DNA of 64,000 bases from Candidatus Poribacteria bacterium (GCA_965208325.1 OZ242326.1:2464001-2528000), one strand, 5' to 3'. Counted from the first letter of the stretch, positions 1 to 16,694 are shown. Numbers and translations: made by a program. The notes: generated by a model not told the origin, from the sequence alone.

Positions 1-421
1 AGCCATGCTGCACAAAGCCGTGCCGGAATCCAAGTTTTTCGTTGAATTGCCGCCTGACAAAGATTACACCATTCGCCGGGCTTACAATTCCGCATTCGAT
101 TCCATGCGCAAAAAGCACCGGTTCGAAACACCGTTGGGTTTCCATTCCCAAACGCAGAAGAAGGAGGCGCGTATCGAAACGCTGGAACCCTCAATAAAAA
201 ACGGCTGGCTCGCCTTCAACGAGGTCGGCCTGCCCGGCGAGTTCTGGAAACAGTTCCGCGAGTTCCCGACCGCCGATCACAACGACGCCCCGGACGCCGT
301 GCAGGGCGCATGCCGCGCGCGTATCTACAAATCTGAACGAATCCGCAACGCTAGACGGTATCAAGACCCCGATCTCGAAGAATGGTACCGTGTAAACAGA
401 TACAGAACCGTGCGCTTTTAA
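1..421 (+). CDS. Phage terminase large subunit, C-terminal nuclease domain (5'-truncated by window edge)
   Basis: KKEARIETLEPSIKNG...KQFREFPTADHNDAPDAVQGA matches the TerL C-terminal pattern K..RI..L.P...G / FP...HDD.PDA. Confidence 0.7.
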   Translation, partial: AMLHKAVPESKFFVELPPDKDYTIRRAYNSAFDSMRKKHRFETPLGFHSQTQKKEARIETLEPSIKNGWLAFNEVGLPGEFWKQFREFPTADHNDAPDAVQGACRARIYKSERIRNARRYQDPDLEEWYRVNRYRTVRF

Positions 422-439
422 CCCCCAAAATTAAAATTT

Positions 440-472
440 CTCCCCCTTACCAAGGGGGAGCTAGAGGGGGTT
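440..472 (+). repeat. Intact REP-like palindrome CTCCCCCTTACCAAGGGGGAG-CTAGAGGGGGTT
   Basis: Perfect 9-bp inverted arms around a 3-nt loop; the same motif is reconstituted at both IS4 insertion sites. Confidence 0.8.
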
Positions 473-661
473 CGGTGAAACACAATAATGTGGGAGAGGC
501 TTCCCAGCCTCGATAATCAATCTGTCCATTCATCCTGTCGCAAGTATGAACCGACATGACCGTAGAGGAAATTCGAAACAACGCAAAAAATAATGCAACA
601 CAAACCTTCGTTTTTACGGTTGTTTGGCGCCAACAATCACAAAATCCTCCCCCTTTACAAG

Positions 662-2315
662 CTTACTATTACCCACAAGTCATGTAATCTGGAAGGTGAG
701 CGTTTTTTTGCGTCTCTTATTTGCCTAACATGATTGCGTGCAAGTTAGGCGGGTAACATATCGGAATCGAGAATCAGTATTTGCTTGGCGAAAGCAAATG
801 TGATAAATTCGAGGGGCTAGGTTACCGAAAATCATAACGACCTCACTACGAAATTGGAGTCAACTATGCCTTCAAACCATGATGAGTTCAAGCTCCCTTG
901 GAGTCGCCAAGAATTTGGGACGATTCATTTGGGAGATAAACGTCTCACTGAGCGACTGATTGATGTCGCCGAAGAATTATCAGGCTATCCGCAATCCTCC
1001 ATCAACGCTGCCTGTGGTGATTGGGCAGCCACAAAAGCAGCTTATCGTTTATTTGATAACCAGAAGGTCACAGCAGAAAAAATTCTAGTGCCTCACTTTC
1101 AACGTACTGTTGAACGAATGAGTGAACATCAACGTGTTTTTGCAGTACAGGATACGACCTATCTGAATTACACGCATCACCCGTTGACCGAGGGCTTAGG
1201 TCCAATTGGGACAAAGTCGCAGCAAATCTACGGGTTTGTCAAACACACGACGCTAGTGCTCACTGAGTCGGGATTGCCATTGGGGTGACTCACGGATAAA
1301 GTTTGGGTCCGGGAAGATTCCGAGCAAACCGTTCGCAAAACCAATCCGCCACTGACTGAAAAAGAGAGTTACAAATGGATTGAAGCGTTAAATGAAATCA
1401 AAGCGCAAACTCCAGCAGGGGTTGAGGTAATTTCCATCTGTGACCGTGAAGCCGATATTTATGAATTTTTTGTTGAATCACAAGACACACCCTTCGTGAT
1501 TCGAGCGGTTCAGAATCGAATTGTTGATGATGAGCTGGGTAAACTCAATCCCTTGGTCAAAAGTCAACCTGCTTCCGGTATGCTAGTTGTTAAGGTACCC
1601 GCTCGTGGGAACCAAGCATCTCGTGAGGCTACGGTCAGTGTTCATTTTACGGCAACGACGCTGGTTCCTCCCTATCGTTCGCAGGCGTCACAATCGCCAA
1701 ATCTACCTGCAATTGAGGTGAATGTCATCTGGGTAGCAGAGGTGAATCCACCCGCGAGGGCAACCCCGATTGAATGGCTGTTAATCACGAATGTAGAAGT
1801 GGCCAATTTTTCGGACGCTCTGGAACGAATACGTTGGTACAGTTTAAGATGGCAAATTGAAGTCTATTTCAAGGTCCTCAAATCCGGCACCAAAATCGAA
1901 TCGTGCCGTCTGCAAACTAAAAGTCGGCTTTTACGATACTTTGCGCTAACCAGTGTGATTGCGTGGCGGTTGTACTGGCTGACGATGATGAACCGCCATG
2001 CCCCGACTGCGGATTGTAGGTGTGTGCTAACATCTGATGAGTGGAAAGCGCTCTATTGTGTGTCTCATCGGCGTAGCACTTTGCCCAAGCAAATTCCTAC
2101 CGTTTCTGAGGTAGTGATTTGGATTGCCAAGCTCGGTGGTTTTTTAGCGCGCAGGTCCGACGGTGAGCCTGGGGTGACTGTTATCTGGCGAGGGTGGCAG
2201 CGGTTAAGAGATATTTCTGACACCTTTCGCCTTTTTCACAGTGTCGAATTGAACGATAGTTCTTAGCACTAACATAGAAAACCACTACCTCCGAAGACTT
2301 GTGGGTAATAGTAAG
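662..2315 (+). mobile_element. IS4-family (IS50/Tn5-like) insertion sequence, copy 1, 1654 bp
   Basis: 20-bp perfect terminal IRs CTTACTATTACCCACAAGTC / GACTTGTGGGTAATAGTAAG; 9-bp target duplication CTTTACAAG at 653-661 and 2316-2324. Confidence 0.95.
866..2266 (+). CDS. IS4-family DDE transposase with one in-frame TGA (1286-1288, codon 141 of 466)
   Basis: ORFs 854..1288 and 1496..2266 are in the same frame and the intervening sequence is open (LTDKVWVR...EKESYKW...ICDREADIYE); catalytic QDTT, CDREAD and YSLRWQIEVYFK (YREK) motifs intact. Confidence 0.85.
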
Positions 2316-2468
2316 CTTTACAAGGGGGAGTTAGAGGGGGTAGGGTTCAAGACTAAATCCCAGATCGAATCCTCAATTCAAGCCAGTATACTAGATGTCT
2401 CTCTGCCTTCACTCTTGACTTCTGTTTTGCCATAATGCAATAATCTAGTAAAACCAATCCGAAAAACA

Positions 2469-5400
2469 ATGCCAACCCTCAACCTAAAACCCACCCACAA
2501 ACCCATCAAAAACTACTACGCCGCGCTCGATCAATTCGACCGCCTCGGCGTTACGCACGAATCCGCCGTCCGCTCGGCATTTCAATCCCTGCTCCAGCAC
2601 TGTGCGCGACAGTTTAATTGCACGCTTGTGCCCGAACATTCGACAACCGGACGTAAAAACAATCGGATTATTGTTGACGGTGCGTTGATGGACGATTTTC
2701 GGTTGACGCACGGCTATTGGGAAGCGAAGGATGAAGATGACGACTTGCCTTCTGAAGTGGTACGCAAGTTTAAGAGGGGTTATCCCCGTGACAACATCCT
2801 TTTCCAAGAACCGTACCGTGCCATTCTCTGGCAGAACGATCGCCAGACGCTTGATGCGGATTTGAGAGATCCTCCGCAACTGATAAGCACGCTTGAAAGA
2901 TTCTTTTCCTACCGCCCGGAAGAGTACACCGAGTGGGAGGAGGCGGTCGCACATTTCAAAGTGGTCGTGCCCGCACTCGGACATGAATTGGCGAAACTCA
3001 TACAGACAAAACGCGATACCAATCGTCAATTCAAGATCGCCTTTGAGGAATTTTACGAGAACTGTCGTCTAGCCATCAATCCCAATCTCTCCGAAGCCGC
3101 AGTCGAGGAGATGTTGATTCAGCACCTCTTGACAGAACAAGTATTCCGCACTGTCTTCGGTAACCCCGACTTCACCCGCCGCAACGTCATCGCCATAGAA
3201 ATCGAGAAGGTGATAGACGCACTAACATCGCAGGCGTTCAGCCGTCAAGATTTTTTGAGTCCCCTTAACACTTTCTACGCGAAAATTGAACGCACTGCGG
3301 CCACCATTGATGATTTTTCGCAAAAACAAGGCTTTCTCAACACCGTCTACGAGCAGTTTTTTCAGGGCTTTTCGGTGAAAGTTGCCGACACGCACGGAAT
3401 TGTCTACACGCCGCAGCCGATCGTCGATTTCATGGTGAGAAGCGTTGAAGAGATTCTAAAGAATGAGTTCAATCGATCGCTCTCCGATACCGGCGTAAAT
3501 ATCATTGACCCGTTTGTGGGCACCGGCAATTTCATCGTACGAATCATGCGCGAGATTCGCAAGACTGCGCTGGCACTAAAATATGCGAAAGAATTACACT
3601 GCATCGAGGTAATGCTGCTGCCCTACTACATTGCGTCAATGAACATTGAGCACGAGTTTTACGACGCGACAGGGATGTATCGTCCCTACGAGCTCATTTG
3701 CTTCGCGGACACTTTCGAGTCGGTGGATGACCCAGAATACCATGAAACATCGCTGTTCGCGGAAAAAAATACCCGCCGCTTTGAAAATCAGAAAGAGACG
3801 CCGATGTTTGTGGTTATCGGCAATCCCCCCTATAACATCGGTCAGGTTAACGAACACGACAATAACAAAAACCGGAAATACCCAGCGATTGATTCGCGGA
3901 TCGCAAGCACGTATGTTAATGACTCCAAAGCGATGCTAAAAACTGCACTTTACGACCCGTATGTGAAGGCTATTTCTTGGGCATCTGAAAGGATTGAACA
4001 GGAGGGAGTTGTCGCCTTCGTAACCAACAACAGTTTTCTTGATGGTGTGGCATTTGACGGGATGCGAAAGCACCTAGCGGCTGATTTCGACGCAATTTAC
4101 ATCCTCGACTTAGGCGGGAATGCTCGGAAGGGACTGAAGGTCTCGGATACGAATGTGTTCGGGATTCGAGTCGGGATAAGCATCAGTTTTTTAATCAGAA
4201 GGCGTTATAATTCAAACTCCCTTGCCGAAATTTTCTACGCCCGAGTTGATGAATTTTGGAACAAGGCGGAGATTTTCCAGCATCTCAATTCAATAGTACA
4301 CTACAGAAACATCGAATGGAAGCCAATTACGCCCGACCATCGAAATTCATGGCTCACCGAAGGGCTCCACACTGAGTTTGAGAGCTATATTTCGATGGGG
4401 ACTAAGGCCACAAAAGCTTCGAAAGGTGAGTCAGTCGACGCGATTTTTAAGATTTATAGCGGCGGTGTTAAAACTAATCGAGATGCGTGGGTGTACAATT
4501 TCAACAAAAAAGCGCTCGCTGAAACCATGAACGGGTTGATCGGAACTTTCGCGGTGGAGGCTGATAGATGGAAACGTCGCAAGAATTGGGACGTCACAGT
4601 TGATGACTTCGTGATTTACGATAGCACGAAAATCAAGTGGAGTTCAAGCTTAAAAAAGAAACTCGTAGGCGGTCAAATTGCAGAATTTTCAAACGCAAAA
4701 ATTAGGCGATCTTTCTATCGCCCATTCGTGATAGCGAATCTCTACTTTGATCGTATGGCAATCGATCGTGTACTCGTATTTCCATCTATTTTCCCAACAC
4801 CGGAAACCGAAACCAACAACAGAGTGATTTGTGTTGCTGGCGTTGGCGATAGAAAAGGCTTCGGTTGCTTTATTACCAACGGGATACCTGCCTTTGATCT
4901 GGCCTTTGAAAAAGCCCAATGTTTCCCTTTCTACACCTACGACGAGGACGGCTCAAACCGACGCGAAAACATCACCGCTTGGGCATTGTCACAATTCAGA
5001 GAGCATTACCGAGACATCGACATCGGCAAATGGGACATCTTTCATTACGTCTACGGTCTGCTGCATCATCCAGAATATCGGGAGCGGTACGCCGCGAATC
5101 TCAAGCGCGACCTCCCGCGTCTCCCCTATGCGCCCGACTTCTGGGGTTTTGCCAAAGCAGGCAAACGCCTGGGGGAAATCCACGTCGGTTATGAAAACGT
5201 GGGTGAATATCCGCTCGACCCAATCGAAACGCCGGATACACAGCTTGATTGGCGCGTAGAGAAGATGAAATTATCCAAGGACAAAACCCAAATAAAATAC
5301 AACAACTTCCTTACCCTCGACGGGATTCCTGCAAAGGCGTTTAACTATCGCCTAGGAAACCGATCGGCGTTGGAATGGGTAATTGACCAGTACCGTGTCA

Positions 5401-5570
5401 AGACCGACAAACGCAGCGGCATCGTCAACGACCCCAACCGCGGCGACGACCCGCAATACATCGTCAAACTCATCGCCAAAGTAATCACCGTCAGCCTCGA
5501 AACCGTCGACATTGTGGAAAATTTACCCGACTTGGGAATCCAAGAATTCTCCCGTGACATAGGGGGCTAA
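2469..5570 (+). CDS. Type ISP/IIG-like restriction-modification enzyme (PD-(D/E)xK nuclease + N6-adenine MTase + C-terminal TRD, no helicase)
   Basis: IVDGAL...YWEAKD nuclease motif; GIVYTP, motif I DPFVGTGNF, motif IV GNPPY; C-terminal SGGVKTNRDAWVYNF / YRPF / SALEWVIDQY typical of the Type ISP C-terminal domain. Confidence 0.85.
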   Translation: MPTLNLKPTHKPIKNYYAALDQFDRLGVTHESAVRSAFQSLLQHCARQFNCTLVPEHSTTGRKNNRIIVDGALMDDFRLTHGYWEAKDEDDDLPSEVVRKFKRGYPRDNILFQEPYRAILWQNDRQTLDADLRDPPQLISTLERFFSYRPEEYTEWEEAVAHFKVVVPALGHELAKLIQTKRDTNRQFKIAFEEFYENCRLAINPNLSEAAVEEMLIQHLLTEQVFRTVFGNPDFTRRNVIAIEIEKVIDALTSQAFSRQDFLSPLNTFYAKIERTAATIDDFSQKQGFLNTVYEQFFQGFSVKVADTHGIVYTPQPIVDFMVRSVEEILKNEFNRSLSDTGVNIIDPFVGTGNFIVRIMREIRKTALALKYAKELHCIEVMLLPYYIASMNIEHEFYDATGMYRPYELICFADTFESVDDPEYHETSLFAEKNTRRFENQKETPMFVVIGNPPYNIGQVNEHDNNKNRKYPAIDSRIASTYVNDSKAMLKTALYDPYVKAISWASERIEQEGVVAFVTNNSFLDGVAFDGMRKHLAADFDAIYILDLGGNARKGLKVSDTNVFGIRVGISISFLIRRRYNSNSLAEIFYARVDEFWNKAEIFQHLNSIVHYRNIEWKPITPDHRNSWLTEGLHTEFESYISMGTKATKASKGESVDAIFKIYSGGVKTNRDAWVYNFNKKALAETMNGLIGTFAVEADRWKRRKNWDVTVDDFVIYDSTKIKWSSSLKKKLVGGQIAEFSNAKIRRSFYRPFVIANLYFDRMAIDRVLVFPSIFPTPETETNNRVICVAGVGDRKGFGCFITNGIPAFDLAFEKAQCFPFYTYDEDGSNRRENITAWALSQFREHYRDIDIGKWDIFHYVYGLLHHPEYRERYAANLKRDLPRLPYAPDFWGFAKAGKRLGEIHVGYENVGEYPLDPIETPDTQLDWRVEKMKLSKDKTQIKYNNFLTLDGIPAKAFNYRLGNRSALEWVIDQYRVKTDKRSGIVNDPNRGDDPQYIVKLIAKVITVSLETVDIVENLPDLGIQEFSRDIGG
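5442..5537 (+). repeat. Direct repeat copy A (3' end of RM gene)
   Basis: 5448-5524 is identical (77 bp) to 11787-11863, with near-identity a few bases further on both sides. Confidence 0.95.
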
Positions 5571-5659
5571 GGGCCCCTGTGGCGTCAGGGTTTGTCGGGT
5601 GTTCGGACATTACTCTATTACGCTTCTATTACGCTGAAACAACACACCTCTTTGTTTAT

Positions 5660-6751
5660 ATGCGCACTCAACAAATTTTCACACCTGAAGAACGAGATGA
5701 AAACGCTAAGCGAAAGCGCGAGTTGATTAAGCTTGTTGTTTCAGGAGAGGCTGTTCTCATCGTTGGCGCTGGAAGTAGTGTGCGTGTTGGATTTCCTGAT
5801 TGGCCGTGTCTACTAACAGAACTGGAAGATTTAGCTATAAAATGGGGCGATAGTTTTAAATTAGATGAAATTAAACGCGAAAACGACCCATTGACATATG
5901 TTGAGGACATTAAATCACACATTTACGATAAAACGAGCAACCTAGATAGATATTATAATTTGCTTTATGAGTTATTTGGTCGTCGTCTCGCTTCAGTTGA
6001 TGATTTCCACAAGATGCTAGTGTCATTACCCTTCAAAGGAATCCTAACCACAAATTACGATACTGTGCTTGAAGCAGCATTAACCGAGATAGATCCGTCG
6101 CCACTTGCTTCTGCAAATTCCTTAGTTATTGATGGAGGTTTTGCCGCACCAGTTCGTGAATTTCTCATGGCTATGGTTGATTCAAGTGTCCCTCGACGCA
6201 TTGCTCACTTGCACGGAAGGTATGACAATTGGGATAATATCATTCTGAGTCGCAAGGATTATCAAAGAGCTTATGAAGGGACTTCCGATTCGAAGCCTAC
6301 CGATACTAATCAGGCGCATACGGATTCTGCGTGGACGCTTCATCGAAAATTGTTATGGGCTCTTTTGGCGACTCGTCGCGTTGTTTTTATTGGTTTTAGC
6401 ATGTGCGATCCCTATTTCAACGGTATGTTAGATGTCGTTAGCAATGATTTATGGCGATGGGATAAAGCCACTCACTACGCAATAATGAGTATTTCCCCTG
6501 AAAAAACTGAGTATTCAAAAGCAAAGAAAATCAAACGTGATTACGGAATTGACACTGTCTTTTACGAGGATTTTGACAACTCCCACCAAGGTTTGGATGG
6601 TATCGTCACGGAAATAGCTGAACGATGCAATGTTGAGGAACAACCAGCGATTGCAACAACTGAGACCCAGTCGTCAAGAGATGAAGAAGTACTGAATTGG
6701 CTAGAACAAATGAATCAACGCGTGGAAAGGACAATTGACGGTGAGAATTAA
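5660..6751 (+). CDS. SIR2-like (SIR2_2) protein, putative NADase effector
   Basis: LIVGAGSS, ILTTNYD, IAHLHG, VVFIGFSMCDP sirtuin motifs; start placed at ATG 5660 (ORF track extends to 5579). Confidence 0.88.
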   Translation: MRTQQIFTPEERDENAKRKRELIKLVVSGEAVLIVGAGSSVRVGFPDWPCLLTELEDLAIKWGDSFKLDEIKRENDPLTYVEDIKSHIYDKTSNLDRYYNLLYELFGRRLASVDDFHKMLVSLPFKGILTTNYDTVLEAALTEIDPSPLASANSLVIDGGFAAPVREFLMAMVDSSVPRRIAHLHGRYDNWDNIILSRKDYQRAYEGTSDSKPTDTNQAHTDSAWTLHRKLLWALLATRRVVFIGFSMCDPYFNGMLDVVSNDLWRWDKATHYAIMSISPEKTEYSKAKKIKRDYGIDTVFYEDFDNSHQGLDGIVTEIAERCNVEEQPAIATTETQSSRDEEVLNWLEQMNQRVERTIDGEN

Positions 6752-9700
6752 ACGAGAGAAACTACTCAAAGATCTTCGGAACTTTGCCTCTCAAGGAAAC
6801 GGAGTCATTATCGGCAGTCCTGGCGTCGGGAAAACATACTTGCTTAACGAACTCCGTCAGAATCTAATATCTGCTGGAATACCGCATCTCCTGCTACCGA
6901 TTGACCAACTCGGGGATGGCGCCGATAAAACTTTACGACAAGCATTGTCTTTCGAAGGCGATTTAATCGAAAAGTTGCTATCTGTTCCAGTTTCCGACAA
7001 AAAACCAATGTTACTATTTGATGCCTTCGATGCCGCTCGAAATGAACAGACACGCCAGCGATTTCTTCAACTGATTCGACGTGCAATTCAAGAACTCAGC
7101 GCTTGGAATGTCGTGGTCACAGTCCGTACCTATGACGCAAAAAAATCCCAAGAGTTATTAGACCTATTTGGCGGCACTCTTGATCCCGATTTACATCAAT
7201 ACCAAAATACAGCGATTTTGTGCCGACATTTCACTATTCCGCGGTTGAATGAGGCTGAGATTCAACAAGCCCTTAACCAGATGCAGTGTCCGGAATCAAT
7301 TTACAATTCTGGTTCTAAGGAATTTAAGCCGCTTTTTGCAATCCCATTTAACCTTTGGCTACTGGAGAAGATCCTAAAAACCTCACCGGATTTCGATTGT
7401 TTTAGTCATATTCGCTCTGAAGTCCAACTACTAAGCTTTTTTTGGCAACGGCGAATTGAGGGCGAAAACAATGGAGAGCATCGTCGATTTGTTCTTGAAC
7501 AAATTTCACACCGGATGGTTGAAGACAATTCATTGAGCGTCAGGCAGAACGACGTTTATAACGATCTGAACCTTGATGTTCCAGCGAGGCAAGGGGCATG
7601 GGACGATTTACTGAGTGATGAAATCTTGGCAAAGGTTTCTTTGACCGGGCAACGGATTGCTTTTTCTCACAACATCCTCTTCGACTACGCAATTAGCGTC
7701 CTACTCATTGATGACGAACCAAAACAACTTGAACGCTTTATCCTTGAAGATCCGTCGCGTCCGCTTTTTCTCCGACCAAGTCTCACCTACTTTTTCACCC
7801 GCCTCTGGCACGATGATCCAGAAACGTTTTGGAGAGCTTTCTGGCACATTTTCCCAAGCAATCAGTCCGTACATATACGCCTATTTGCCCGTTTGATTCC
7901 GACCAGCGTTATCGCAATTGAAGCCCACGTAATTAGCCAATTGACGCCGTTTTTCGATAAACTTAAGAGTGATAAAGAAATTGCCAATCAAGCAGTGATG
8001 TGGCTGTTGCAATCTCTCAATACGCTACAAATTGAACGCGACGAACTCTGGGTTGATTTTTTCGACCAAGTATCGGAAAATTTGCACAGCGACTTCGCGT
8101 GGGATTTGGCAACTATTACCTCTGCGGTGCTTGAGAGGTCAAAGACTGAAGACTCGGTTACCATAAACGCTTGCGGACGGATTGGACGCCGGTTACTCAA
8201 ATGGATTTGGCAAGCGCGAGAGACGAGCGAAAATGACTGGAATAACCGGCTCGGGAGTTCTTGGGCGGTTCCACTCGTCGCCAAGACTTTTGGAAATAAT
8301 CCTAAAGAATCGCGGGTACTGCTGGAAACAGTTCTCGACCTGACGCGGAAAGAAAATTTCACTATAAATTTCCTGATGCGGTTGACTAAACATGTTGACA
8401 GGATTTGGCTTCATGACCCTGAGTTTGTCACTCGAACTTATCTCGTGGTGTTTACTCACAACGAGACTAGCAATGAGATGACGCGCCTAGGCGGCGGTCC
8501 CATATTGCCTCTAGCAAGTACACGCCATCAAGACTACAGCAGTTGCCAGTATTTGTTGATACAGCATTTCCCGAACTTCCTGCGAGCTGCGCCATTATTC
8601 GCGACGCAAACAATGATTCCAATTTTGAACAACTTCATTTCTAAGACATATATCTTCAGTTTTGAAGACCGTGTGGACCGTGAAGATTCGCCCGAGAAGT
8701 TCAATTTTCGTGGAAAGCTTGCCCACTATGTACAGGACTACAGTTGCGAATGGGATAAAGTAGGATATCCTGATGAGCCAATCCAAATGGCAGATTCGTG
8801 GTTTGACTTCATCGCGGAATTGGCGGGGTTGACAGAAGCCCATTTGCTTCTTGATTCCCTACTAGACGTTTTCCGTGATGATGTCCGGGTTGCGTTCTTC
8901 TGGAAACGGCTATTGAAAACAGCGTCTCAATTTCCCGATGTCTTCGCGCCACGTCTGTTTGAACTGTGTATAGCGAAGCCGATACACATGGGTAACGATG
9001 TCCTAGACAATCTTTGTACGTTTTTAAAAGCTGCTGCGTGTCATTTCACGCGTGGGCAACGGCGTCAGATTGAAGAAAGCATTCTGGCGCTCCCCCGCGA
9101 AAGCGGTAACAACCGGCTATTTCTTCACCGTCGTAGAAATCAACTTCTAGAAAAAATCCCTTCGAATTTGTTAATTACGGAGGCTGCAAAGAAAATCCGC
9201 AAAGAATTCGAGCGTGAAAACGATGTCCCCGAAATTCCAACGTCTGCCGGTTTTGAATCTTCCCGTATACAAAATTCGTACGACCATCCTTTCTATCAGG
9301 GTGCTGACTCCGACGTACCTGAGAATCAAGAATTGAAAATCTTGGTTGATTCACTCACTCAATTCAGTTCAGATTGGCTAAATGGCAAACCGACGGAAGA
9401 CGCCGCTGAGTTGATTTTGCCAGAGTTAAGGGCCGCTTACGCCGCAATAAACGAAGACGAGGACATGGATGAGCAGGTATCAGATCGCCTCTGGTACAAA
9501 CTTACCGATTGCGCTGCAATCTTAAGTCGAGTAGTCGATAATACTGAAAGTCCCCTTTTCGATTTCTGCCGCCTAGTACTTTTACACGGCGCAACGCATA
9601 AACTTCCCGAACCGGAATTTGAACGCGATGCTCAATTAAGTTCTTCAAGCTATTCCCCATTTCCTCGACATGAAGCCGCCAAGGGATTACTAAGACTCGC

Positions 9701-10787
9701 GATTCGTCAATCTGATTCGGAAATGTTAAACGCGATCGAGGTTCTTGCACGCGATCCCGTACCGTCGGTTCGGATGGTGACAGCAACGGGTTTGTTCATG
9801 GTTTACGTCACTGCTCCAGAAAAATTCTGGCAGATCGTCGGGCAAAGAGCAGCTAATGAGAAAAATCTGGTCGTGCAAGGTCACATGTGTGCTACGTTAA
9901 CTCGGGTTGTCGGGCAAGGAATAGAGGAAGAAGAAAACACTGTAGGTGTTATGGACCAGATGCTGAAGTCGGCACTTGCACGCGCGCAGGCATTAAATCT
10001 GTCAAATTCGTTTGTCAATTTGTTGATGTGGCTGGCAATCGGTCGTAAAAATCCATGGGCATTGCAGACCATCGAACAAACCTTTTTCGAGGTACCAATC
10101 CAGTTCGCTCCATCCATGAATCATGCTGTTTCTTGGGCCATGCGAGAGTTTGTCGTCCCCAAGAATCTCGAATCAGATGACGCATGCGAAACGCTTCAAC
10201 GAGCTATTAAATGGTTAAAACAAGTAATTGACGTGGCTTCAGCCACGATTGAAGAATTGTCCGCGACCACCAACGGCGCTAGGACTGCAGAAACAACGAA
10301 ACAGTTACAGGACATCTACGGTGTGATTGACGAAGTTATCACGCGCCTATACTATACAACGGCCGCCCACGAAAAAGGTCAACCTGAGGAAATTGACGGT
10401 AAGCTACACTGTCAATTCTACGATCAAGTCAAGCCGTTAATGGAAGATGTCACTACTTTCGCATTAGGCGAACACGGCATCATGTTCGCTCCGACAGCCT
10501 ATCGTTTCACGCAACTCCTAACCTGTTTTATAAGCTGTAATCCCAAAGAGGTAATCCATCTCGCAGAGCGTGTTGCGAGGTCAAGCGAACCTTCCGGTTA
10601 TAATTTCGACTCCCTTGCAATCGAGGAAGTAGTCAAATTTGTCGAAATTGTCCTCGCGGACCACCGCAGCGAAGTGCGTGGTGGTGAAAGCTTGGAAAAC
10701 CTCCTGAAGCTGCTGGATATGTTTGCCAAAGCCGGTTGGTCAGATGCCCTAAGGCTCGTCTGGCGTCTTGATGAGATCTTTCGATAG
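6741..10787 (+). CDS. Large STAND/NACHT-like P-loop ATPase with long helical C-terminal region (Avs-like), no N-terminal effector
   Basis: Walker A GSPGVGKT about 25 aa from start, Walker B LLFDAFD, VTVR sensor, IPFNLWLL, IAFSHNILFDY; GTG 6741 follows GGAAAGGA and overlaps the SIR2 3' end. Confidence 0.75.
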   Translation: MRIKREKLLKDLRNFASQGNGVIIGSPGVGKTYLLNELRQNLISAGIPHLLLPIDQLGDGADKTLRQALSFEGDLIEKLLSVPVSDKKPMLLFDAFDAARNEQTRQRFLQLIRRAIQELSAWNVVVTVRTYDAKKSQELLDLFGGTLDPDLHQYQNTAILCRHFTIPRLNEAEIQQALNQMQCPESIYNSGSKEFKPLFAIPFNLWLLEKILKTSPDFDCFSHIRSEVQLLSFFWQRRIEGENNGEHRRFVLEQISHRMVEDNSLSVRQNDVYNDLNLDVPARQGAWDDLLSDEILAKVSLTGQRIAFSHNILFDYAISVLLIDDEPKQLERFILEDPSRPLFLRPSLTYFFTRLWHDDPETFWRAFWHIFPSNQSVHIRLFARLIPTSVIAIEAHVISQLTPFFDKLKSDKEIANQAVMWLLQSLNTLQIERDELWVDFFDQVSENLHSDFAWDLATITSAVLERSKTEDSVTINACGRIGRRLLKWIWQARETSENDWNNRLGSSWAVPLVAKTFGNNPKESRVLLETVLDLTRKENFTINFLMRLTKHVDRIWLHDPEFVTRTYLVVFTHNETSNEMTRLGGGPILPLASTRHQDYSSCQYLLIQHFPNFLRAAPLFATQTMIPILNNFISKTYIFSFEDRVDREDSPEKFNFRGKLAHYVQDYSCEWDKVGYPDEPIQMADSWFDFIAELAGLTEAHLLLDSLLDVFRDDVRVAFFWKRLLKTASQFPDVFAPRLFELCIAKPIHMGNDVLDNLCTFLKAAACHFTRGQRRQIEESILALPRESGNNRLFLHRRRNQLLEKIPSNLLITEAAKKIRKEFERENDVPEIPTSAGFESSRIQNSYDHPFYQGADSDVPENQELKILVDSLTQFSSDWLNGKPTEDAAELILPELRAAYAAINEDEDMDEQVSDRLWYKLTDCAAILSRVVDNTESPLFDFCRLVLLHGATHKLPEPEFERDAQLSSSSYSPFPRHEAAKGLLRLAIRQSDSEMLNAIEVLARDPVPSVRMVTATGLFMVYVTAPEKFWQIVGQRAANEKNLVVQGHMCATLTRVVGQGIEEEENTVGVMDQMLKSALARAQALNLSNSFVNLLMWLAIGRKNPWALQTIEQTFFEVPIQFAPSMNHAVSWAMREFVVPKNLESDDACETLQRAIKWLKQVIDVASATIEELSATTNGARTAETTKQLQDIYGVIDEVITRLYYTTAAHEKGQPEEIDGKLHCQFYDQVKPLMEDVTTFALGEHGIMFAPTAYRFTQLLTCFISCNPKEVIHLAERVARSSEPSGYNFDSLAIEEVVKFVEIVLADHRSEVRGGESLENLLKLLDMFAKAGWSDALRLVWRLDEIFR

Positions 10788-11191
10788 GATTTTTCGTGCA
10801 CACGCCTGGTGCTCGTATTATTGACGGAACACTCAAATAGATCTCGAAGTCATGTAGGATTTCCGTATTCATTCCGCAAAACCCATAACGGTGAGTTTGG
10901 AGACAGCGGAAATCGTTGAAAAGTTGGCTGTTTGAATGGCAGGTCGGGAATGTGCAGGAAAATGAAAAGAGGATAATTGTAGTGTGAGACCCCGCGATAC
11001 GCGATAAAAGATTGTAAACGACCAAATGCTTTAGAAATGTGCTCGGACTAAGTTATTTTGGAAACAATGTGAACCGTATCATTGTTGATCTCAACGCCGA
11101 GTTGGATAGATGGTACAAACCGAATCCAACAGGACAAGGCTGTCACGCTTTTGAGCGAGAAGCCGGTTACAGCTAAGGAAGGCATCGAATC

Positions 11192-11788
11192 GTGAAGCTA
11201 TGCTCATACATAGTAGCAACAGACTACGGATTCGCTCCAAATCCGTTCTACGGCTTCTGTACACTAGCAACTTGCAAATCTAGAATTCGAAAGAGCGCTA
11301 AGATTGGCGACTGGGTTATTGGTACTGGCTCAAAGGCTATTCAACGAGATGGTAATCTTGTCTATGTCATGCGTGTAACGGAGACAATTACGTTTGATGA
11401 ATACTGGAAAGACCCTCGTTTTAGTAATAAACGTCCTGACATGCACGCCAATGACAAGAAAGCCATCTTCGGCGACAATATCTATCACAAAGACCCTGAT
11501 TCAAATGAGTGGTGTCAGATAGATACCTATCACAGCCGTCGCGATAGAACGCCGTGTTATTCGTATATTTGCGATGACACGGAGGTAGACCAAGTCTTAA
11601 TCAGTGACGATTTCATTTACTGGGGAGGAACCGGACCCAAACTCCCTAGGTTTTGTGGGGTCAATTTTTGCTGGGATCGGCAGGGGCATAAGTGCAATTT
11701 TCCACAAGAAGCTGTTGCAGAATTAATCGCGTGGATTCGTAGTCTCAAAGATAGGGGCTACTGCGGTCGTCCTTCAGACTGGCGATGA
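11192..11788 (+). CDS. Nmad2-family (nucleotide-modification-associated domain 2) protein
   Basis: SYIVATDYGFAPNPFYGFCTLATCKSRIRKSAKIGDWVIGTGS, GDNIY, VLISDDFIYWG signature. Confidence 0.8.
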   Translation: MKLCSYIVATDYGFAPNPFYGFCTLATCKSRIRKSAKIGDWVIGTGSKAIQRDGNLVYVMRVTETITFDEYWKDPRFSNKRPDMHANDKKAIFGDNIYHKDPDSNEWCQIDTYHSRRDRTPCYSYICDDTEVDQVLISDDFIYWGGTGPKLPRFCGVNFCWDRQGHKCNFPQEAVAELIAWIRSLKDRGYCGRPSDWR

Positions 11789-11879
11789 CCCGCAATACAT
11801 CGTCAAACTCATCGCCAAAGTAATCACCGTCAGCCTCGAAACCGTCGACATTGTGGAAAATTTGCCGGAATTGGGATAA
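11781..11879 (+). repeat. Direct repeat copy B: displaced RM-gene 3' end (GDDPQYIVKLIAKVITVSLETVDIVENLPELG-stop)
   Basis: Matches 5442-5537 and carries its own in-frame TAA at 11877-11879. Confidence 0.92.
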
Positions 11880-11904
11880 AAATGGATATGGAGGAAATTC
11901 AACG

Positions 11905-12750
11905 ATGTCAAATTCTATCGTTAACTTGGGAAAGCTAGCAAAGCCTTTTGACACCCTGGTCAAGAAAATTGCGAAAGGCATCGGTGGCACGGTTGCTCCT
12001 TGGCAGATCAAAAGAGTTGCTAGGGCAGAAGCTGAGGCTGCAAGAATTAATGCGCAATCTGAGATTGAAGTGACCGACTTACATCAAAGAGCCGCGCAGC
12101 GTCGAATTGAAGAAGATGCACGTCAACAAAAGAATATGGAAGATATTATCACTAAAGCAGCACCACATTTGAAAGAAGATGCAAAACCCGACGCCATGGC
12201 TGACGACTGGATCTCCAACTTCTTTGATAAATCTCGAATCGTATCCGACAGTGAAATGCAGAGTTTGTGGTCGCGCGTACTGGCAGGTGAAGCGAACACT
12301 CCTGGTACCTACTCCAAGCGTACCGTTAATCTTATTGCGGAGTTTGACAGGCGCGATGCTGAACTTTTCACTAAGCTTTGTGGATTTGGCTGGATTATAG
12401 GAAATGTAATACCTTTGGTGTTTGATGTGCAGGCGGAAATTTACACTAAACAAGGAATAACCTTCGATAGCGTGAGTCATCTTGAAAGTTTTGGACTTGT
12501 TCAATCTGCAGGAGTTACTGGTTTCAGCCGAGTCAATTTGCGCAAAAGACTTATTGTGTACTACTATAGTAAGCCATTGCTACTGGAATTCCCCAAGGAT
12601 ACTGGTAACGAGCTAAAGATTGGAAAGATACGTCTCACTAAAATCGGACAGGAACTTGCGCCAATATGCGGAAGTAAGCCAGTAGAAGGTTTCTACGAAT
12701 ACGTCAAGAACCGGTGGAAGCAATTCATTCCCAAGGGTGAAAAAACATAA
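11905..12750 (+). CDS. DUF2806-like protein
   Basis: RQQKNMEDI, DDWISNFF, SDSEMQSLWSRVLAGEANTPGTYSKRT pattern; GGAGG RBS before ATG 11905. Confidence 0.75.
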   Translation: MSNSIVNLGKLAKPFDTLVKKIAKGIGGTVAPWQIKRVARAEAEAARINAQSEIEVTDLHQRAAQRRIEEDARQQKNMEDIITKAAPHLKEDAKPDAMADDWISNFFDKSRIVSDSEMQSLWSRVLAGEANTPGTYSKRTVNLIAEFDRRDAELFTKLCGFGWIIGNVIPLVFDVQAEIYTKQGITFDSVSHLESFGLVQSAGVTGFSRVNLRKRLIVYYYSKPLLLEFPKDTGNELKIGKIRLTKIGQELAPICGSKPVEGFYEYVKNRWKQFIPKGEKT

Positions 12751-12769
12751 TAGCAGTAGTAAGTCCTTA

Positions 12770-12873
12770 GTAGGTTGGGCAGAGTGAACACATTCGTAGC
12801 GCTTGGAAAGACTGCACAAGGTAGCAGGTGAAAACCACCGTTTTCTTTCTATAGCCCATTAGCGAAACCCAAC
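12770..12873 (+). repeat. ~100-bp GTAG-type REP-like element
   Basis: GTAGGTTGGG...GCGAAACCCAAC ends; family members at 14140-14241, 14382-14484(-), 53595-53694, 55469-55568. Confidence 0.75.
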
Positions 12874-13106
12874 GCTTTTGGAATTACCTTCAACTTGCGT
12901 AACGCATTGTTACGTTGGCTATGCGAGATAAAAATAATTCCTCTAGCAAACGACGAATAGGCGATTGGACACCGTAGGTGCGAATTGGTCTCTGCCAACT
13001 CATTTACAGGAGTTCAGAAGCTGAAATTGCAGCCACAGACGTATCGGTAGACTTAACAGAAGGTGACTTGCACCTCGCGTAGCAAGACATAGAAAAGGAG
13101 AAACTC

Positions 13107-14054
13107 ATGCGCCAGATGACATGGATAGGCAGACCCGTAAACGAAAACTCTGACCACTTCGAAAAAATACGCGGTCTTATTCCGACCTTCAGCAGAGAGG
13201 GTTTTAAAATCGATGGCCAAGAAAACGAGCATCTCGACATGATTGTCAAGCTGCCTCGATACCCAAACGATACAAAAATTCCAGTGGCAACGGTATCGAA
13301 ATCCTACTCGCTCATTCAACACCGTGAAATACTCAACGAAATAGAAAGCGCGTTGAAAACTATGGGTTACCCAATCGAAAATTTTGAAACAGACCTACAA
13401 TTGACAATCTACGGAGAACGCATGTGGTTGAGGATTACTTTCCAAGAGGAGCACTCGTTTGATCCCGGAGATGGGTACCCGCTAACACTACAGCTTCACG
13501 TTATTAACTCGGTTGACGGGAGCACTCCACTAACCTACGAAATGTGCTGGTTCAGACTCATCTGTGAAAACGGTCTTATGCAGTCCAACAGCGCAAGTGC
13601 CCGAATAAGGCACACTGCCTCACTAGATAAAACAAAATTCGTTGAACTCCTCGATTCCAGCATTAACGAGATGCGCGCTGAAGCCGATGCATACATGACT
13701 TGGTACGAAATACCGTTAAACCCGGGCACACAGATATTGGAAGACTGGATTGACTCGACGGTGAATAATAAGTGGGGCTTCCGGCTCGCAGCGCGTAGCT
13801 ATCACATAATTAAAACCGGAATGGACGGTAGAGTAGACAAAGTCGACGCGACTTCGGCGGAAAAACGTAAAGCCCCGCACACAATCAAAGTTTCGTCCGA
13901 ACAATCGGTGCCGGGGGCAATACCTGCTGAGAATGTCTATGATGTTGCAAACGCACTATCCTGGATTGCGTCACACCGCAATTCACTCCAAACTCGATAC
14001 AATTACATGAAGGCGATGCCTGAGCTACTTGCCGATCTTAACCAGAGACTCTAA
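13107..14054 (+). CDS. DUF932/DUF945-like mobile-element-associated protein
   Basis: VSKSYSLIQHRE, INSVDGS, FRLICENG motifs. Confidence 0.75.
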   Translation: MRQMTWIGRPVNENSDHFEKIRGLIPTFSREGFKIDGQENEHLDMIVKLPRYPNDTKIPVATVSKSYSLIQHREILNEIESALKTMGYPIENFETDLQLTIYGERMWLRITFQEEHSFDPGDGYPLTLQLHVINSVDGSTPLTYEMCWFRLICENGLMQSNSASARIRHTASLDKTKFVELLDSSINEMRAEADAYMTWYEIPLNPGTQILEDWIDSTVNNKWGFRLAARSYHIIKTGMDGRVDKVDATSAEKRKAPHTIKVSSEQSVPGAIPAENVYDVANALSWIASHRNSLQTRYNYMKAMPELLADLNQRL

Positions 14055-14139
14055 GGCAATTAAGACCCATTTGAAAACTTTCAACCTATTGAAGTAGACA
14101 ACCACGTACACATATGAAATTGCAATGTGAGTTGTTTTT

Positions 14140-14579
14140 GTAGGTTGGGTAGAGCGGATATGGTGAAACATGCGTGGTATTTGGTAAGCATTACATACGT
14201 TGAAATTGTTTGGCACATGTAATAGTGTAGCAAAACCCAACGTTTTTGAAACGTTCGCATAGCCGACCGGCAGACGCCAACACCGGAACACTAGGAACAA
14301 GGAACTACAATGAGCGTAATAGGAATTCGGAGCGGTGTATAGTAATCGGAATTTGTTAGCGTTCCCGGAGGGTATAAAAGCGTTGGGTTTCGTTCTGGGC
14401 GTATTGACAACAGCATTGTTAGAAATTCGTAACGGTCAATTGCTATCAGAACCGTTTTGGAATTACCCGCTCTACCCAACCTACAGAAACTGCGTGAATC
14501 AAATTTGGAGGTCGTTAGGCTTCCAGAATGAAACGTAAAACTGTACATCATTTGGTGAAATCCGCTCAGCCCAACCTAC
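14140..14579. repeat. Cluster of REP-like elements (14140-14241 +, 14382-14484 -, partial copy ending 14579 -)
   Basis: GTAGGTTGGGTAGAGCGG...AAACCCAAC and reverse complement GTTGGGTTTCG...CCGCTCTACCCAACCTAC. Confidence 0.75.
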
Positions 14580-14621
14580 TAGAGCTGTCCAGTTCACATA
14601 ACGCAAAAACGAAATTACAAT

Positions 14622-16694
14622 ATGAATTCATGTCAACCCACGATTGATCGACACACGCCAATGAAAACCCAAGCATTTCGTTACACGCTTATCCTATTGA
14701 GCGGACTTACCTTGTCTACATTCGCCCCGGTTGCTGACGCTCAAATTCAAGATTTCTCAATGTTGAATTTACCTGACGGAGCGATTGTCCGCTTGGGCAA
14801 AGGCGGGGTGAGTTTCGGCGACCGAGGTATCGCGTTTTCGCCCGATGGAAGCCGCCTCGCCGTAGCAACCAGCATCGGCATTTGGCTTTACGATGCCGAG
14901 ACGCTTAGTGAAATTGCACTGCTAGCCGGCCACAACGAAAAGGTGTCCACCGTGGCGTTCTCGCCTGACGGCAAAAAACTGGCTTCAGGGTCGGGCTCCC
15001 AATTGCCCGGAACGCTAAAACTTTGGGATGTCGAAAGCGGACAAAATATCGTTGCATTCCACGTAGAGAGAAGTTCAGTTGTTTCTGCGGCGTTCTCGCC
15101 TGACGGGGCAAAACTTGCCTGGGCGGGACGACTTTGGGATGTGGCAACCGGGCAACAACTCGATATAATCCAAGATAAGGGGTTGTTCAAGCTCGAGTTT
15201 TCGTCCGATGGTGTGATGTTAGCGGGGACAAGCATAAGCGCCGTTAACGGGAAGCGGGCGGGTATTGTAAAGTTATACGATATCGAAACCGGACAACTCC
15301 TTAAAACGCTAAATCAGGGTACAGAACGGGTCTCATCAATCGCCTTTTCACCTGATGGACATCTGTTAGCTTCAGGCTCGGCAGTCGACGGTACAGTCAA
15401 TCTGTGGGATGTAGATTCTGGGCAAAATACCGCCGTATTTACAGTGAAACCAAATGATGGTGTCGCAATGTGTGTTGCGTTCTCACCCGACGGCGCAAAA
15501 CTCGCCGTGGCGTCAGCGGCGGGAATCACCCTGTTGGAAGTATCCACGGGGCAGCATCTCTACACACGGCAACACGTCGAAATCGGCAAACTAGAAATTT
15601 CAGTGGACGTTTTCTCTGTTGCGTTTTCGCCCGACGGCACGAAACTCGCCTCAGCGTCATGGGATGGCGTCAAGCTGTGGGATGCGGCGGCCGGGCAAAA
15701 TATCGCCGCCTTACCCGGCCATGCGCGGGCGGTGAATGCTGTCGCGTTCGCACCTGACGGGTTGACGCTCGCGTCAAATTCGATAAGCGGCGTCCAAGTG
15801 TGGGAGGTTGCCGCCGGACAGCATATCGCCACGCTGGCAGGACCTCCGAATTTTGCCGCCTCCTTTGCGTATTCGCCAGACGGCACAAGACTCGCCGCGG
15901 GGTCAGCCGATGCAAGGAACGCCGAGCATACAGTTAAAATCTGGGACGTAGATACGGGGAAAAATACGTATACCCTGCAAGGGCACTCTGACTTAGTGAC
16001 CGCGGTCGCGTACTCGCAAGACGGAACGCTGCTTGCCGCAGGGTCAAAAGATAGAACTATCAACGTGTGGGATGTCAAAACAGGGCAAAGCGCCGCCAGA
16101 CTACAAGGGCATGAGAGCTCAATCAACGCTGTCGCGTTTTCGCCCGATGGAACGAAACTGGCTTCCGGCGCGGACGATACGTCAATTCGGTTGTGGGAGA
16201 TTCCGAATGGCAAAACACTGCATACACTAGGCGGGGTAAATAGCCCCCAAACCCCGGCAAAAGTGCTGCCCGCGCCGCGCCGAGGAGAGGACATCAACGA
16301 AGTTCAGATGGACAGTGACGGTGATGTTGAACCCGAGATTATCAGGGGTTCTGTCCGATCTGTCGCATTTTCGCCGGACGGGACGAAACTCGCCTCTGCG
16401 TCGATGGATGGCGTCAGACTGTGGCATGTAGGGAGGGGGCAGCTTCTCGGGGCGCTTACGGACGGGGAAGCATCTCCGGGTTTCTCCGTTGCATTTTCTC
16501 CGGATGGCGCAAAACTCGCTTCAGGATCCTGGGATGACACGGCAAAGCTGTGGGATGTTTCCACGCAAAAACATATCGCCGCATTTCGAGGGCATACCGG
16601 CAACGTCTGGACTGTGGCGTTTTCGCCCGACGGCACAAAACTGGCTTCAGGATCAGATGATGGAACGGTGCTGCTGTGGAATGCACCGGAGTAA
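14622..16694 (+). CDS. Secreted WD40-repeat beta-propeller protein
   Basis: Signal-peptide-like N-terminus; more than 12 repeats of VAFSPDG.KLASGS.D.T..LWD. Confidence 0.92.
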   Translation: MNSCQPTIDRHTPMKTQAFRYTLILLSGLTLSTFAPVADAQIQDFSMLNLPDGAIVRLGKGGVSFGDRGIAFSPDGSRLAVATSIGIWLYDAETLSEIALLAGHNEKVSTVAFSPDGKKLASGSGSQLPGTLKLWDVESGQNIVAFHVERSSVVSAAFSPDGAKLAWAGRLWDVATGQQLDIIQDKGLFKLEFSSDGVMLAGTSISAVNGKRAGIVKLYDIETGQLLKTLNQGTERVSSIAFSPDGHLLASGSAVDGTVNLWDVDSGQNTAVFTVKPNDGVAMCVAFSPDGAKLAVASAAGITLLEVSTGQHLYTRQHVEIGKLEISVDVFSVAFSPDGTKLASASWDGVKLWDAAAGQNIAALPGHARAVNAVAFAPDGLTLASNSISGVQVWEVAAGQHIATLAGPPNFAASFAYSPDGTRLAAGSADARNAEHTVKIWDVDTGKNTYTLQGHSDLVTAVAYSQDGTLLAAGSKDRTINVWDVKTGQSAARLQGHESSINAVAFSPDGTKLASGADDTSIRLWEIPNGKTLHTLGGVNSPQTPAKVLPAPRRGEDINEVQMDSDGDVEPEIIRGSVRSVAFSPDGTKLASASMDGVRLWHVGRGQLLGALTDGEASPGFSVAFSPDGAKLASGSWDDTAKLWDVSTQKHIAAFRGHTGNVWTVAFSPDGTKLASGSDDGTVLLWNAPE

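Follow-up and report, generated by a model that had tools for sequence, protein, structure and literature searches.

Bacterial receptors that resemble the animal nucleotide-binding leucine-rich repeat receptors (NLRs), such as the Avs and bNACHT proteins, are mostly described as single proteins with a fused effector. The animal proteins NLRP3, NLRC4 and NOD2 have leucine-rich repeat sensors and death-fold adaptors of their own. Avs5 (EfAvs5) combines a SIR2 effector, a STAND NTPase and a C-terminal sensor in one polypeptide, with depletion of NAD+ as the expected output (PMC11897194, the sections available). According to the accessible part of PMC13581612, SeAvs7 has a fused Cap4 nuclease and a tetratricopeptide repeat (TPR) sensor that binds the major capsid protein. 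A different arrangement is found in the STAND systems coupled by effector-associated domains (EADs), where the effector is encoded apart from the NTPase and recruited via a small helical element (Kaur et al., eLife 2021, PMC8195603, the part available). Here we describe a pair of genes in a 64,000-nt stretch of Candidatus Poribacteria bacterium (GCA_965208325.1 OZ242326.1:2464001-2528000), referred to below as the window. The pair consists of a stand-alone SIR2 gene and a NACHT-type STAND ATPase. It does not have the general Avs trait of an N-terminally fused effector: the effector is a separate upstream gene, so that there are two polypeptides where Avs5 has one, and a separate SIR2 where SeAvs7 has its nuclease.

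We consider it probable that the SIR2 and the ATPase form a self-contained two-gene NLR-like (Avs-like) abortive-infection module, in which SIR2 is held on the ATPase via its tail and oligomerisation activates the destruction of NAD+. This proposal is built on computed architecture, conservation, folds, catalytic motifs, effector swaps and behaviour of the tail, from which we infer binding, trigger, NADase activity and defence. The features of the pair are as follows.

5660..6751, + strand: SIR2 effector gene, 363 aa, stand-alone, with a SIR2_2 domain of the ThsA/DSR2 type
6686..6733, + strand: conserved C-terminal SIR2 segment and proposed docking helix, residues 343-358, EVLNWLEQMNQRVERT, behind a variable acidic linker
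6741..10787, + strand: NACHT-type STAND ATPase, 1348 aa from GTG 6741, with no N-terminal effector domain
6741..8090, + strand: NACHT module, residues 1-450 (nucleotide-binding domain, NBD; helical domain 1, HD1; winged-helix domain, WHD; helical domain 2, HD2), with Walker A at 6813-6836, Walker B LLFDAFD and the WHD motif FSHNILFDY
8181..10784, + strand: C-terminal region and presumed sensor, about 870 aa, with weak HEAT-like signals

The original prediction, made from the sequence of the window, had described a SIR2 gene overlapping the start of an ATPase of about 1350 aa, with the Walker A motif so close to the N-terminus as to leave no space for a fused effector, and a SIR2 that ends in an acidic linker and a short tail. 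This description holds in every part. The SIR2 open frame spans 5579-6751, and ATG 5660 is the likely start because the N-termini of the homologues align at that position. The SIR2 stop codon (6749-6751) lies inside the ATPase frame, which is open over 6735-10787, giving an overlap of 11 nt from GTG 6741 or 17 nt from the alternative start TTG 6735 (which would give 1350 aa). GTG 6741 is the likely start, since most homologues have ATG there and the collection record is of 1348 aa. Counted from this GTG, the Walker A motif GSPGVGKT occupies residues 25-32, its lysine being residue 31, and because it starts at residue 25 there is no space for an N-terminal domain.

The conservation of this arrangement was surveyed in 176 genomes of the window's phylum, 56 of which have the ATPase, and in metagenomes; at least 754 ATPase homologues were found among 8000 candidates scored. 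Neighbours in the genomes were counted in 29 non-self loci with 1.5-kb flanks. SIR2 lies directly upstream in 22 of them, one of which also has a SMEK-fused ATPase; six of the remainder show, in its place, an ATPase fused to an N-terminal domain, and the last runs into a contig end. The metagenome loci (n=72) were recruited by ATPase patterns alone, with no use of SIR2 as a seed. The ATPase N-terminus is missing from 11 of these, and the pairing was therefore counted in the remaining 61, which form 50 clusters at 90% identity and 15 at 50%. A SIR2 gene is directly upstream on the same strand in 60 of the 61, down to 25% ATPase identity. The stop and start codons overlap by 1-17 nt in 47 of these 60 pairs and are separated by a gap of 2-13 nt in 11, the two outliers being one broken SIR2 and one N-extended ATPase. 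The relative frame of the two genes varies between loci, and none of the 60 pairs is fused.

These observations bear directly on the possibility that the two genes are an artefact or a pseudogene, that is, a frameshifted SIR2-STAND gene of the Avs5 kind that was once fused. The two frames do overlap, and fused SIR2-STAND proteins exist in Avs5 (PMC11897194, as far as the available text goes). A fused open reading frame (ORF) was sought both in homologues and in sequencing-run contigs, and none was found. At the junction, 6735-6751, there are no inserted or missing letters in the contigs of four public runs, which come from two samples of one study and possibly include the source sample of the assembly. 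The relatives of SIR2 are also short: a search without filter gave 2295 matches, and the best 150 of these (E <= 1.5e-33) are 156-658 aa long. In addition, the PADLOC Avs models have no match to the window's proteins. Because the pair is conserved unfused across loci in differing relative frames, the SIR2 relatives are short and the contigs have no junction indel, we give a frameshift practically no credence. The split of effector and NLR-like ATPase is true and deeply conserved.

The SIR2 protein matches SIR2_2 in Pfam (E 6.6e-21), and ThsA (3.8e-20) and LmuA-SIR2 (3.2e-19) in PADLOC. A profile of 50 homologues, all taken from pair loci, matches the solved structures of ThsA (6lhx, 1.4e-24) and DSR2 (2e-19); the nearest structures include the NADases ThsA, DSR2 and KomC, and FAM118B is matched by the profile as well. 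The motifs TTNYD and HLHG are both found, and G36 and G38 of the GxG Rossmann motif, N132 of TTNYD and H185 of HLHG are invariant in 50/50 homologues. Judged by its motifs, SIR2 is catalytically intact. It belongs to the same SIR2_2 family as Thoeris ThsA and DSR2, with the catalytic Asn and His in common, but resembles neither as a system. It matches the SIR2 part of the ThsA models alone, and Pfam finds no SLOG domain; nor does it have a working ThsB partner, the lone TIR trace in the window being a decayed remnant that belongs with a downstream Nmad2 gene. The C-terminal domain of the DSR2 type is also absent, the NCBIfam Dsr2 model scoring 27 bits against a cut-off of 1400.

The ATPase passes the Pfam NACHT model narrowly (4.2e-6, 27.1 bits, cut-off 26.7), and NCBIfam 20.0 has no model for it. 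An AlphaFold2 model of residues 1-500, calculated from an alignment of 37 sequences, has a mean predicted local distance difference test score (pLDDT) of 91.1 and a predicted template modelling score (pTM) of 0.90. In a Foldseek search with this model the top ranks are taken by the NACHT modules of NLRP3 (E 4.4e-10), NLRC4, NLRP9 and NOD2. Superposition by VIA-align on NLRP3 gives Z 21.2 with a root mean square deviation of 4.7 Å over 381 residues, followed by NLRC4 (20.5), NOD2 (19.9), Apaf-1 (16.4), Avs4 (12.4) and Avs3 (12.2). The likeness to the animal NLRs is to the closed form of the NACHT module (Z 19.9-21.2 over 345-383 residues), at 11-14% identity. The solved Avs5 structures match the fold much less well than NLRP3 and NLRC4 with their Z of 20-21: for 9nc9 Z is 11.4 over 165 residues, and for 9jap the Foldseek E is 2e-6.

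Residue conservation in the ATPase was counted over 37 sequences: G25, P27, G28, G30, K31, D94 and D97 are invariant in 37/37, covering the Walker A lysine and the Walker B acidic residues, and R129 and the WHD histidine H310 (of FSHNILFDY) are invariant too. A profile of the first 500 residues, run against the PDB, matches 9n00/9n01 at E 8.4e-15 in two collinear stretches, one over the NBD and the other over HD/WHD. The 9n00 chain (1523 aa) is taken here as SeAvs7, because its accession codes appear in the SeAvs7 paper (Nature 2026, PMC13581612, in the part available). The NTPase module of Avs7 is thus homologous to the window's ATPase, and both have a long C-terminal region behind it; effectors are exchanged in both families (as the same available part describes for Avs7). 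On the predicted model and the sequence profiles, the ATPase is a STAND/NACHT protein with the order NBD-HD1-WHD, related to an Avs family. Pfam detects HEAT_2 in the C-terminal part of 8 of the 37 homologues, the window's own copy not being among them.

The original prediction had also raised the question of a match to a named system. The ATPase body fits the PADLOC model PDC-M54A at E 6.4e-189, over profile positions 300-1657 only, whereas the canonical PDC-M54A protein matches positions 1-1621. The canonical system was found on plasmids of Rhizobium, Streptomyces and Sphingobium, with 22-24% identity to the window's ATPase. These proteins are about 1560-1620 aa long (WP_012555068.1 of Rhizobium pRLG202 has 1619 aa) and have an extra N-terminal domain of about 300 aa, without a Pfam family, that is lacking here. 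In the Rhizobium and Sphingobium loci PDC-M54A is followed by PDC-M54B, which is not annotated in the Streptomyces locus. The window has SIR2 upstream instead of PDC-M54B downstream, and neither the eight proteins around the ATPase in the window nor the genes scanned next to it in relatives gave a match to PDC-M54B. With a partial PDC-M54A match, no N-terminal domain and no PDC-M54B, the pair is related to PDC-M54 but is not a member of that system as defined. It is related to Avs7 as well, and probably not a member of that family as defined either. As regards PDC-M54 itself, we note that PDC-M54B is 463-481 aa long with no Pfam family, that both A and B are uncharacterised, and that the N-terminal domain of the Streptomyces PDC-M54A has a weak LmuA-like match in PADLOC (3e-4).

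A literature search for a named two-gene SIR2-STAND system turned up SIR2-HerA, Avs5, DSR2 and Lamassu, none of which matches the pair. The portion of the supplementary files available from the Nature 2026 STAND survey contains no MCH8291043, SIR2, split or SMEK, and the clade may be listed in the rest. The pair is an uncatalogued two-gene SIR2 system, of which PADLOC 2.0 holds only a distant relative. It is a widespread, uncharacterised NLR-like module with SIR2 supplied in trans, for which knowledge of the families suggests a defence role and depletion of NAD+. Phage records and viral contigs yielded no copy of it, no RNA run containing it was listed, and Rfam gave no match over window positions 1-16000.

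Further information comes from those relatives in which the effector has changed. Among the 120 best ATPase homologues, 92 begin at the NACHT module, 27 are N-extended and one lacks the Walker A pattern searched for. In the copies scanned the extension is a SMEK domain (Pfam 1.6e-41), which PADLOC calls as the restriction-endonuclease partner of short Argonautes (2e-59); SMEK is listed among the nucleases of short-pAgo systems in the available text of PMC10810196. One metagenome relative has an HNH extension in its place. In a FastTree phylogeny of 60 ATPases, for which support values are local only, the SIR2-split form occurs in every deep clade, and the SMEK form is restricted to one 24-row clade of the window's phylum, where it is interleaved with split forms; the starred branches of the tree force at least five changes of the SMEK label. 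From the sequences, this looks like the effector modularity typical of defence STANDs.

The most informative part of SIR2 is its C-terminus, which reads ...SSRDEEVLNWLEQMNQRVERTIDGEN. The linker preceding the final segment is very variable in length, but column counts show positions 347-358 to be occupied in 46-48 of the 50 aligned sequences, with a tail pattern W-[LIV]-x-x-[ILVM]-[NTS]-x-[RK] (WLEQMNQRV in the window copy). Overlap with the start of the ATPase gene limits what the final three to four residues can be. The segment is predicted to be helical. In 27/27 of the N-extended relatives the same motif (…DWLEKVNNLW…) follows the SMEK domain and precedes the NACHT module. In addition, there are three loci (L042, L050 and L059) in which a SIR2 gene stands upstream of an effector-fused ATPase, and in 3/3 the SIR2 stops just short of the segment, which is carried by the ATPase. 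SIR2 thus lacks the segment exactly where the ATPase has its own, so that there is one segment per system, and the effector would therefore be attached through it. The function proposed for the segment is based mainly on this argument. The tail segment is conserved and behaves like a docking element, and these patterns suggest that it binds the ATPase.

On this basis we propose, tentatively and as a reading whose chances fall somewhat short of even, that members of this NACHT family offer just one socket for an effector, into which a conserved stretch of about 12 residues, W-L-x-x-[ILVM]-N-x-R, would fit. This segment would be carried on the free SIR2 in most lineages, probably ancestrally, and the receptor would be completed by structural complementation. 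Effectors such as SMEK or HNH that bring their own segment would displace SIR2, which then loses its tail. The loci L042, L050 and L059 look like intermediates of such displacement. The arrangement differs from that of the EAD-coupled systems: EADs are small domains carried by both partners, with a presumed homotypic pairing, whereas here the ATPase has no N-terminal domain and SIR2 has only about 12 conserved residues, which moreover are a covalent part of the fused relatives.

A mechanism can be outlined for the two-gene module that we prefer. The SIR2 NADase would be a polypeptide of its own, read from an overlapping frame whose translation is coupled to that of the ATPase, and its conserved C-terminal segment (WLEQMNQRV) would hold it on the ATPase, as the counterpart of the stretch by which effector and NACHT module are covalently joined in the fused relatives. 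The N-terminal NACHT module would be the nucleotide switch, and the sensor is presumed to reside in the C-terminal part of about 870 aa. When a phage protein is sensed, the ATPase would bind ATP and oligomerise, and the tethered SIR2 domains would gather into an active assembly that destroys NAD+ and stops phage growth.

The opposite polarity is also conceivable, namely that the ATPase keeps SIR2 inactive in the manner of an antitoxin until phage sensing or ATP frees it to self-assemble and deplete NAD+, in which case the split would be the point of the design. FAM118B and ThsA self-assemble, and both structures are matched by the SIR2 profile; SIR2 is always a separate polypeptide, produced in coupled amounts with the ATPase; and the tail-less SIR2 copies keep their catalytic motifs. 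We regard this as unlikely, because the alternative effectors SMEK and HNH are covalently fused at the same site in relatives, which agrees with effectors being activated by induced proximity once the receptor oligomerises, as described for SeAvs7 (PMC12803255, the sections available).

Several observations weigh against the two-gene NADase module as we describe it. The tail-less SIR2s of L042, L050 and L059 keep GAGSS, TTNYD and HLHG; since their catalytic motifs persist, SIR2 may act without the tail, or these copies may be recent leftovers. SIR2 domains can have activities besides NAD+ hydrolysis. The Avs7 sensor is a bilobed TPR structure in common with Dsr1; the C-terminal profile of the window's ATPase matches 9n00 at E 0.005 over 52 residues and HEAT proteins at 0.02-0.3, none of which is significant. 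The distant loci are often flanked by housekeeping genes rather than lying in defence islands, and the range of neighbours also includes other defence genes. Finally, PDC-M54, the nearest relative in the catalogues, is only a candidate system, and the literature search yielded no paper naming it.

The surroundings of the pair have to be considered next, since both neighbouring genes have been candidates for a third component. The features concerned are the following.

2469..5570, + strand: upstream restriction-modification enzyme, single-chain Type IIL (DrdV-like), 1033 aa
5442..5537, + strand: left 96-nt direct repeat, formed by the DrdV-like restriction-modification gene's 3' end
10922..11164, + strand: decayed 3'-half remnant of a ThsB-type TIR gene, a passenger
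11192..11788, + strand: Nmad2 gene (Pfam Nmad2 2.5e-66), inside the cassette, after a 404-nt spacer behind the ATPase
11781..11876, + strand: right 96-nt direct repeat, an orphan restriction-modification C-terminus (…ENLPELG, stop) that overlaps the Nmad2 stop codon

The repeat is a duplication of the upstream restriction-modification gene's 3' end; its two copies are 96% identical and bound a 6.3-kb insert holding SIR2, the ATPase and Nmad2, so that the repeat-bounded cassette of the original prediction is confirmed. In three same-genus genomes without the ATPase, a restriction-modification gene of 70-77% identity runs straight into a DUF2806 gene, which in the window stands behind the right repeat; this is the empty site. 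A three-way alignment shows a clean insertion. From the empty site and the clean insertion it follows that recombination at the restriction-modification gene's 3' end brought in SIR2, the ATPase, the spacer and Nmad2 together, in a single 6.3-kb piece. No such repeat duplicate was present in 13 other loci examined. At locus L038 the full-length restriction-modification gene is closely preceded by a truncated copy of the C-terminal part of such a gene (47-1342), which again points to recombination between paralogues.

The restriction-modification enzyme matches PDB 7lo5 (1029 aa) at E 5.9e-203 over residues 15-1020, and Pfam Type_ISP_C at 1.7e-104. Of the 20 wide loci of the phylum, 14 have a homologue of full or near full length immediately before the ATPase unit, with SIR2-split and SMEK-fused forms alike, and Eco57I-type IIG enzymes are upstream in L055/L058, L056 and L107/L108. 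The enzyme could on these grounds be a functional partner in a three-gene system, for example if it labelled self DNA or signalled the presence of unmodified DNA. Transcription would be compatible with this: no promoter-like site is listed in 5570-5660, and the best one precedes 2469, in a scan whose number of promoter and terminator sites (16, with 14.3 expected) is not above chance. However, the homologue is seen in only two of the 72 metagenome loci (L053 and L086), the flanks there being variable, and the family is present in 146 of the 176 phylum genomes, in several copies in most, and stands without the pair in same-genus genomes. Full-length homology also links the enzyme to a single-chain Type IIL enzyme of solved structure that acts alone (preprint 10.1101/2021.01.06.425610, the part available), and the pair came to lie behind the gene through recombination at the gene's 3' end. 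It is the metagenome loci and the empty site in particular that make the three-gene reading decidedly unlikely. Comparison of the loci indicates that the restriction-modification gene is a frequent, lineage-restricted neighbour and recombination anchor rather than a component.

It was further suggested that Nmad2 may be a third component, reading modified phage DNA. It does lie in the same repeat-bounded insert, downstream and on the same strand, but it is absent from all 29 other genome loci and all 72 metagenome loci of the ATPase, and in the seven other phylum genomes that have Nmad2 it never adjoins the ATPase. In six of these seven loci (L137-L142) a 157-aa ORF lies 13-21 nt upstream on the same strand, and the two that were scanned (L137 and L138) are ThsB-type TIR proteins, matching PADLOC ThsB PDLC00418 over the full length at 5.7e-68 and 3.9e-65. 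A decayed copy stands between the ATPase and Nmad2 in the window: tblastn with the L137 TIR recovers residues 79-156 at 27% identity (E 1.5e-4 against the whole window), in a reading frame interrupted by stop codons. As Nmad2 is absent from the other pair loci and its usual partner is a ThsB-type TIR, decayed here, it is a passenger and not a component, and a role in the module is very improbable. Of the original prediction as a whole, the split pair, the STAND/NACHT protein related to an Avs family, the SIR2 catalytic residues and the conserved tail segment stand, and Nmad2 falls away. The corrected position of Nmad2 points to a separate ThsB-Nmad2 pairing. Nmad2 occupies the place of ThsA beside the ThsB-type TIR, and the two may be an undescribed Thoeris-like pair; Nmad2 had no match in PADLOC.

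Other elements lie further out. The DUF2806 gene (11905-12750) is TIGR03899-like with a likely start at ATG 11905, and is followed by a DUF932 gene (13107-14054) of the phage/plasmid-like TIGR03299 type. The DUF932 region is flanked by short inverted repeats (12768-12784/14565-14581 and 14134-14160/14464-14490) with the common core GTAGGTTGGG; a similar word stands behind the DUF2806 gene in a sister genome (L124). These repeats may belong to a small family dispersed over the genome. A 690-aa WD40 repeat protein follows at 14622-16694, with internally repeated DNA (families D1-D3) and higher G+C (0.54-0.58). Upstream, 647-2330 is an IS4/Tn5-like insertion sequence with 35-nt inverted repeats that are 91% complementary, its transposase lying in two ORFs, 854-1288 (DNA-binding) and 1496-2266 (DDE and dimerisation).

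The pair therefore represents a large family in which the effector is habitually separate from the receptor, and in which the tail segment is the only visible link between SIR2 and ATPase. The apparent natural intermediates, in which one effector seems to displace another, offer a model, open to direct test, for how an NLR scaffold acquires and swaps its effectors. If the single-socket reading is true, there would be a plug-and-socket rule for the exchange of effectors, unlike both the fused Avs proteins and the homotypic EAD adaptors, and the segment would be a short transferable peptide with which a chosen effector could be attached to a chosen sensor.

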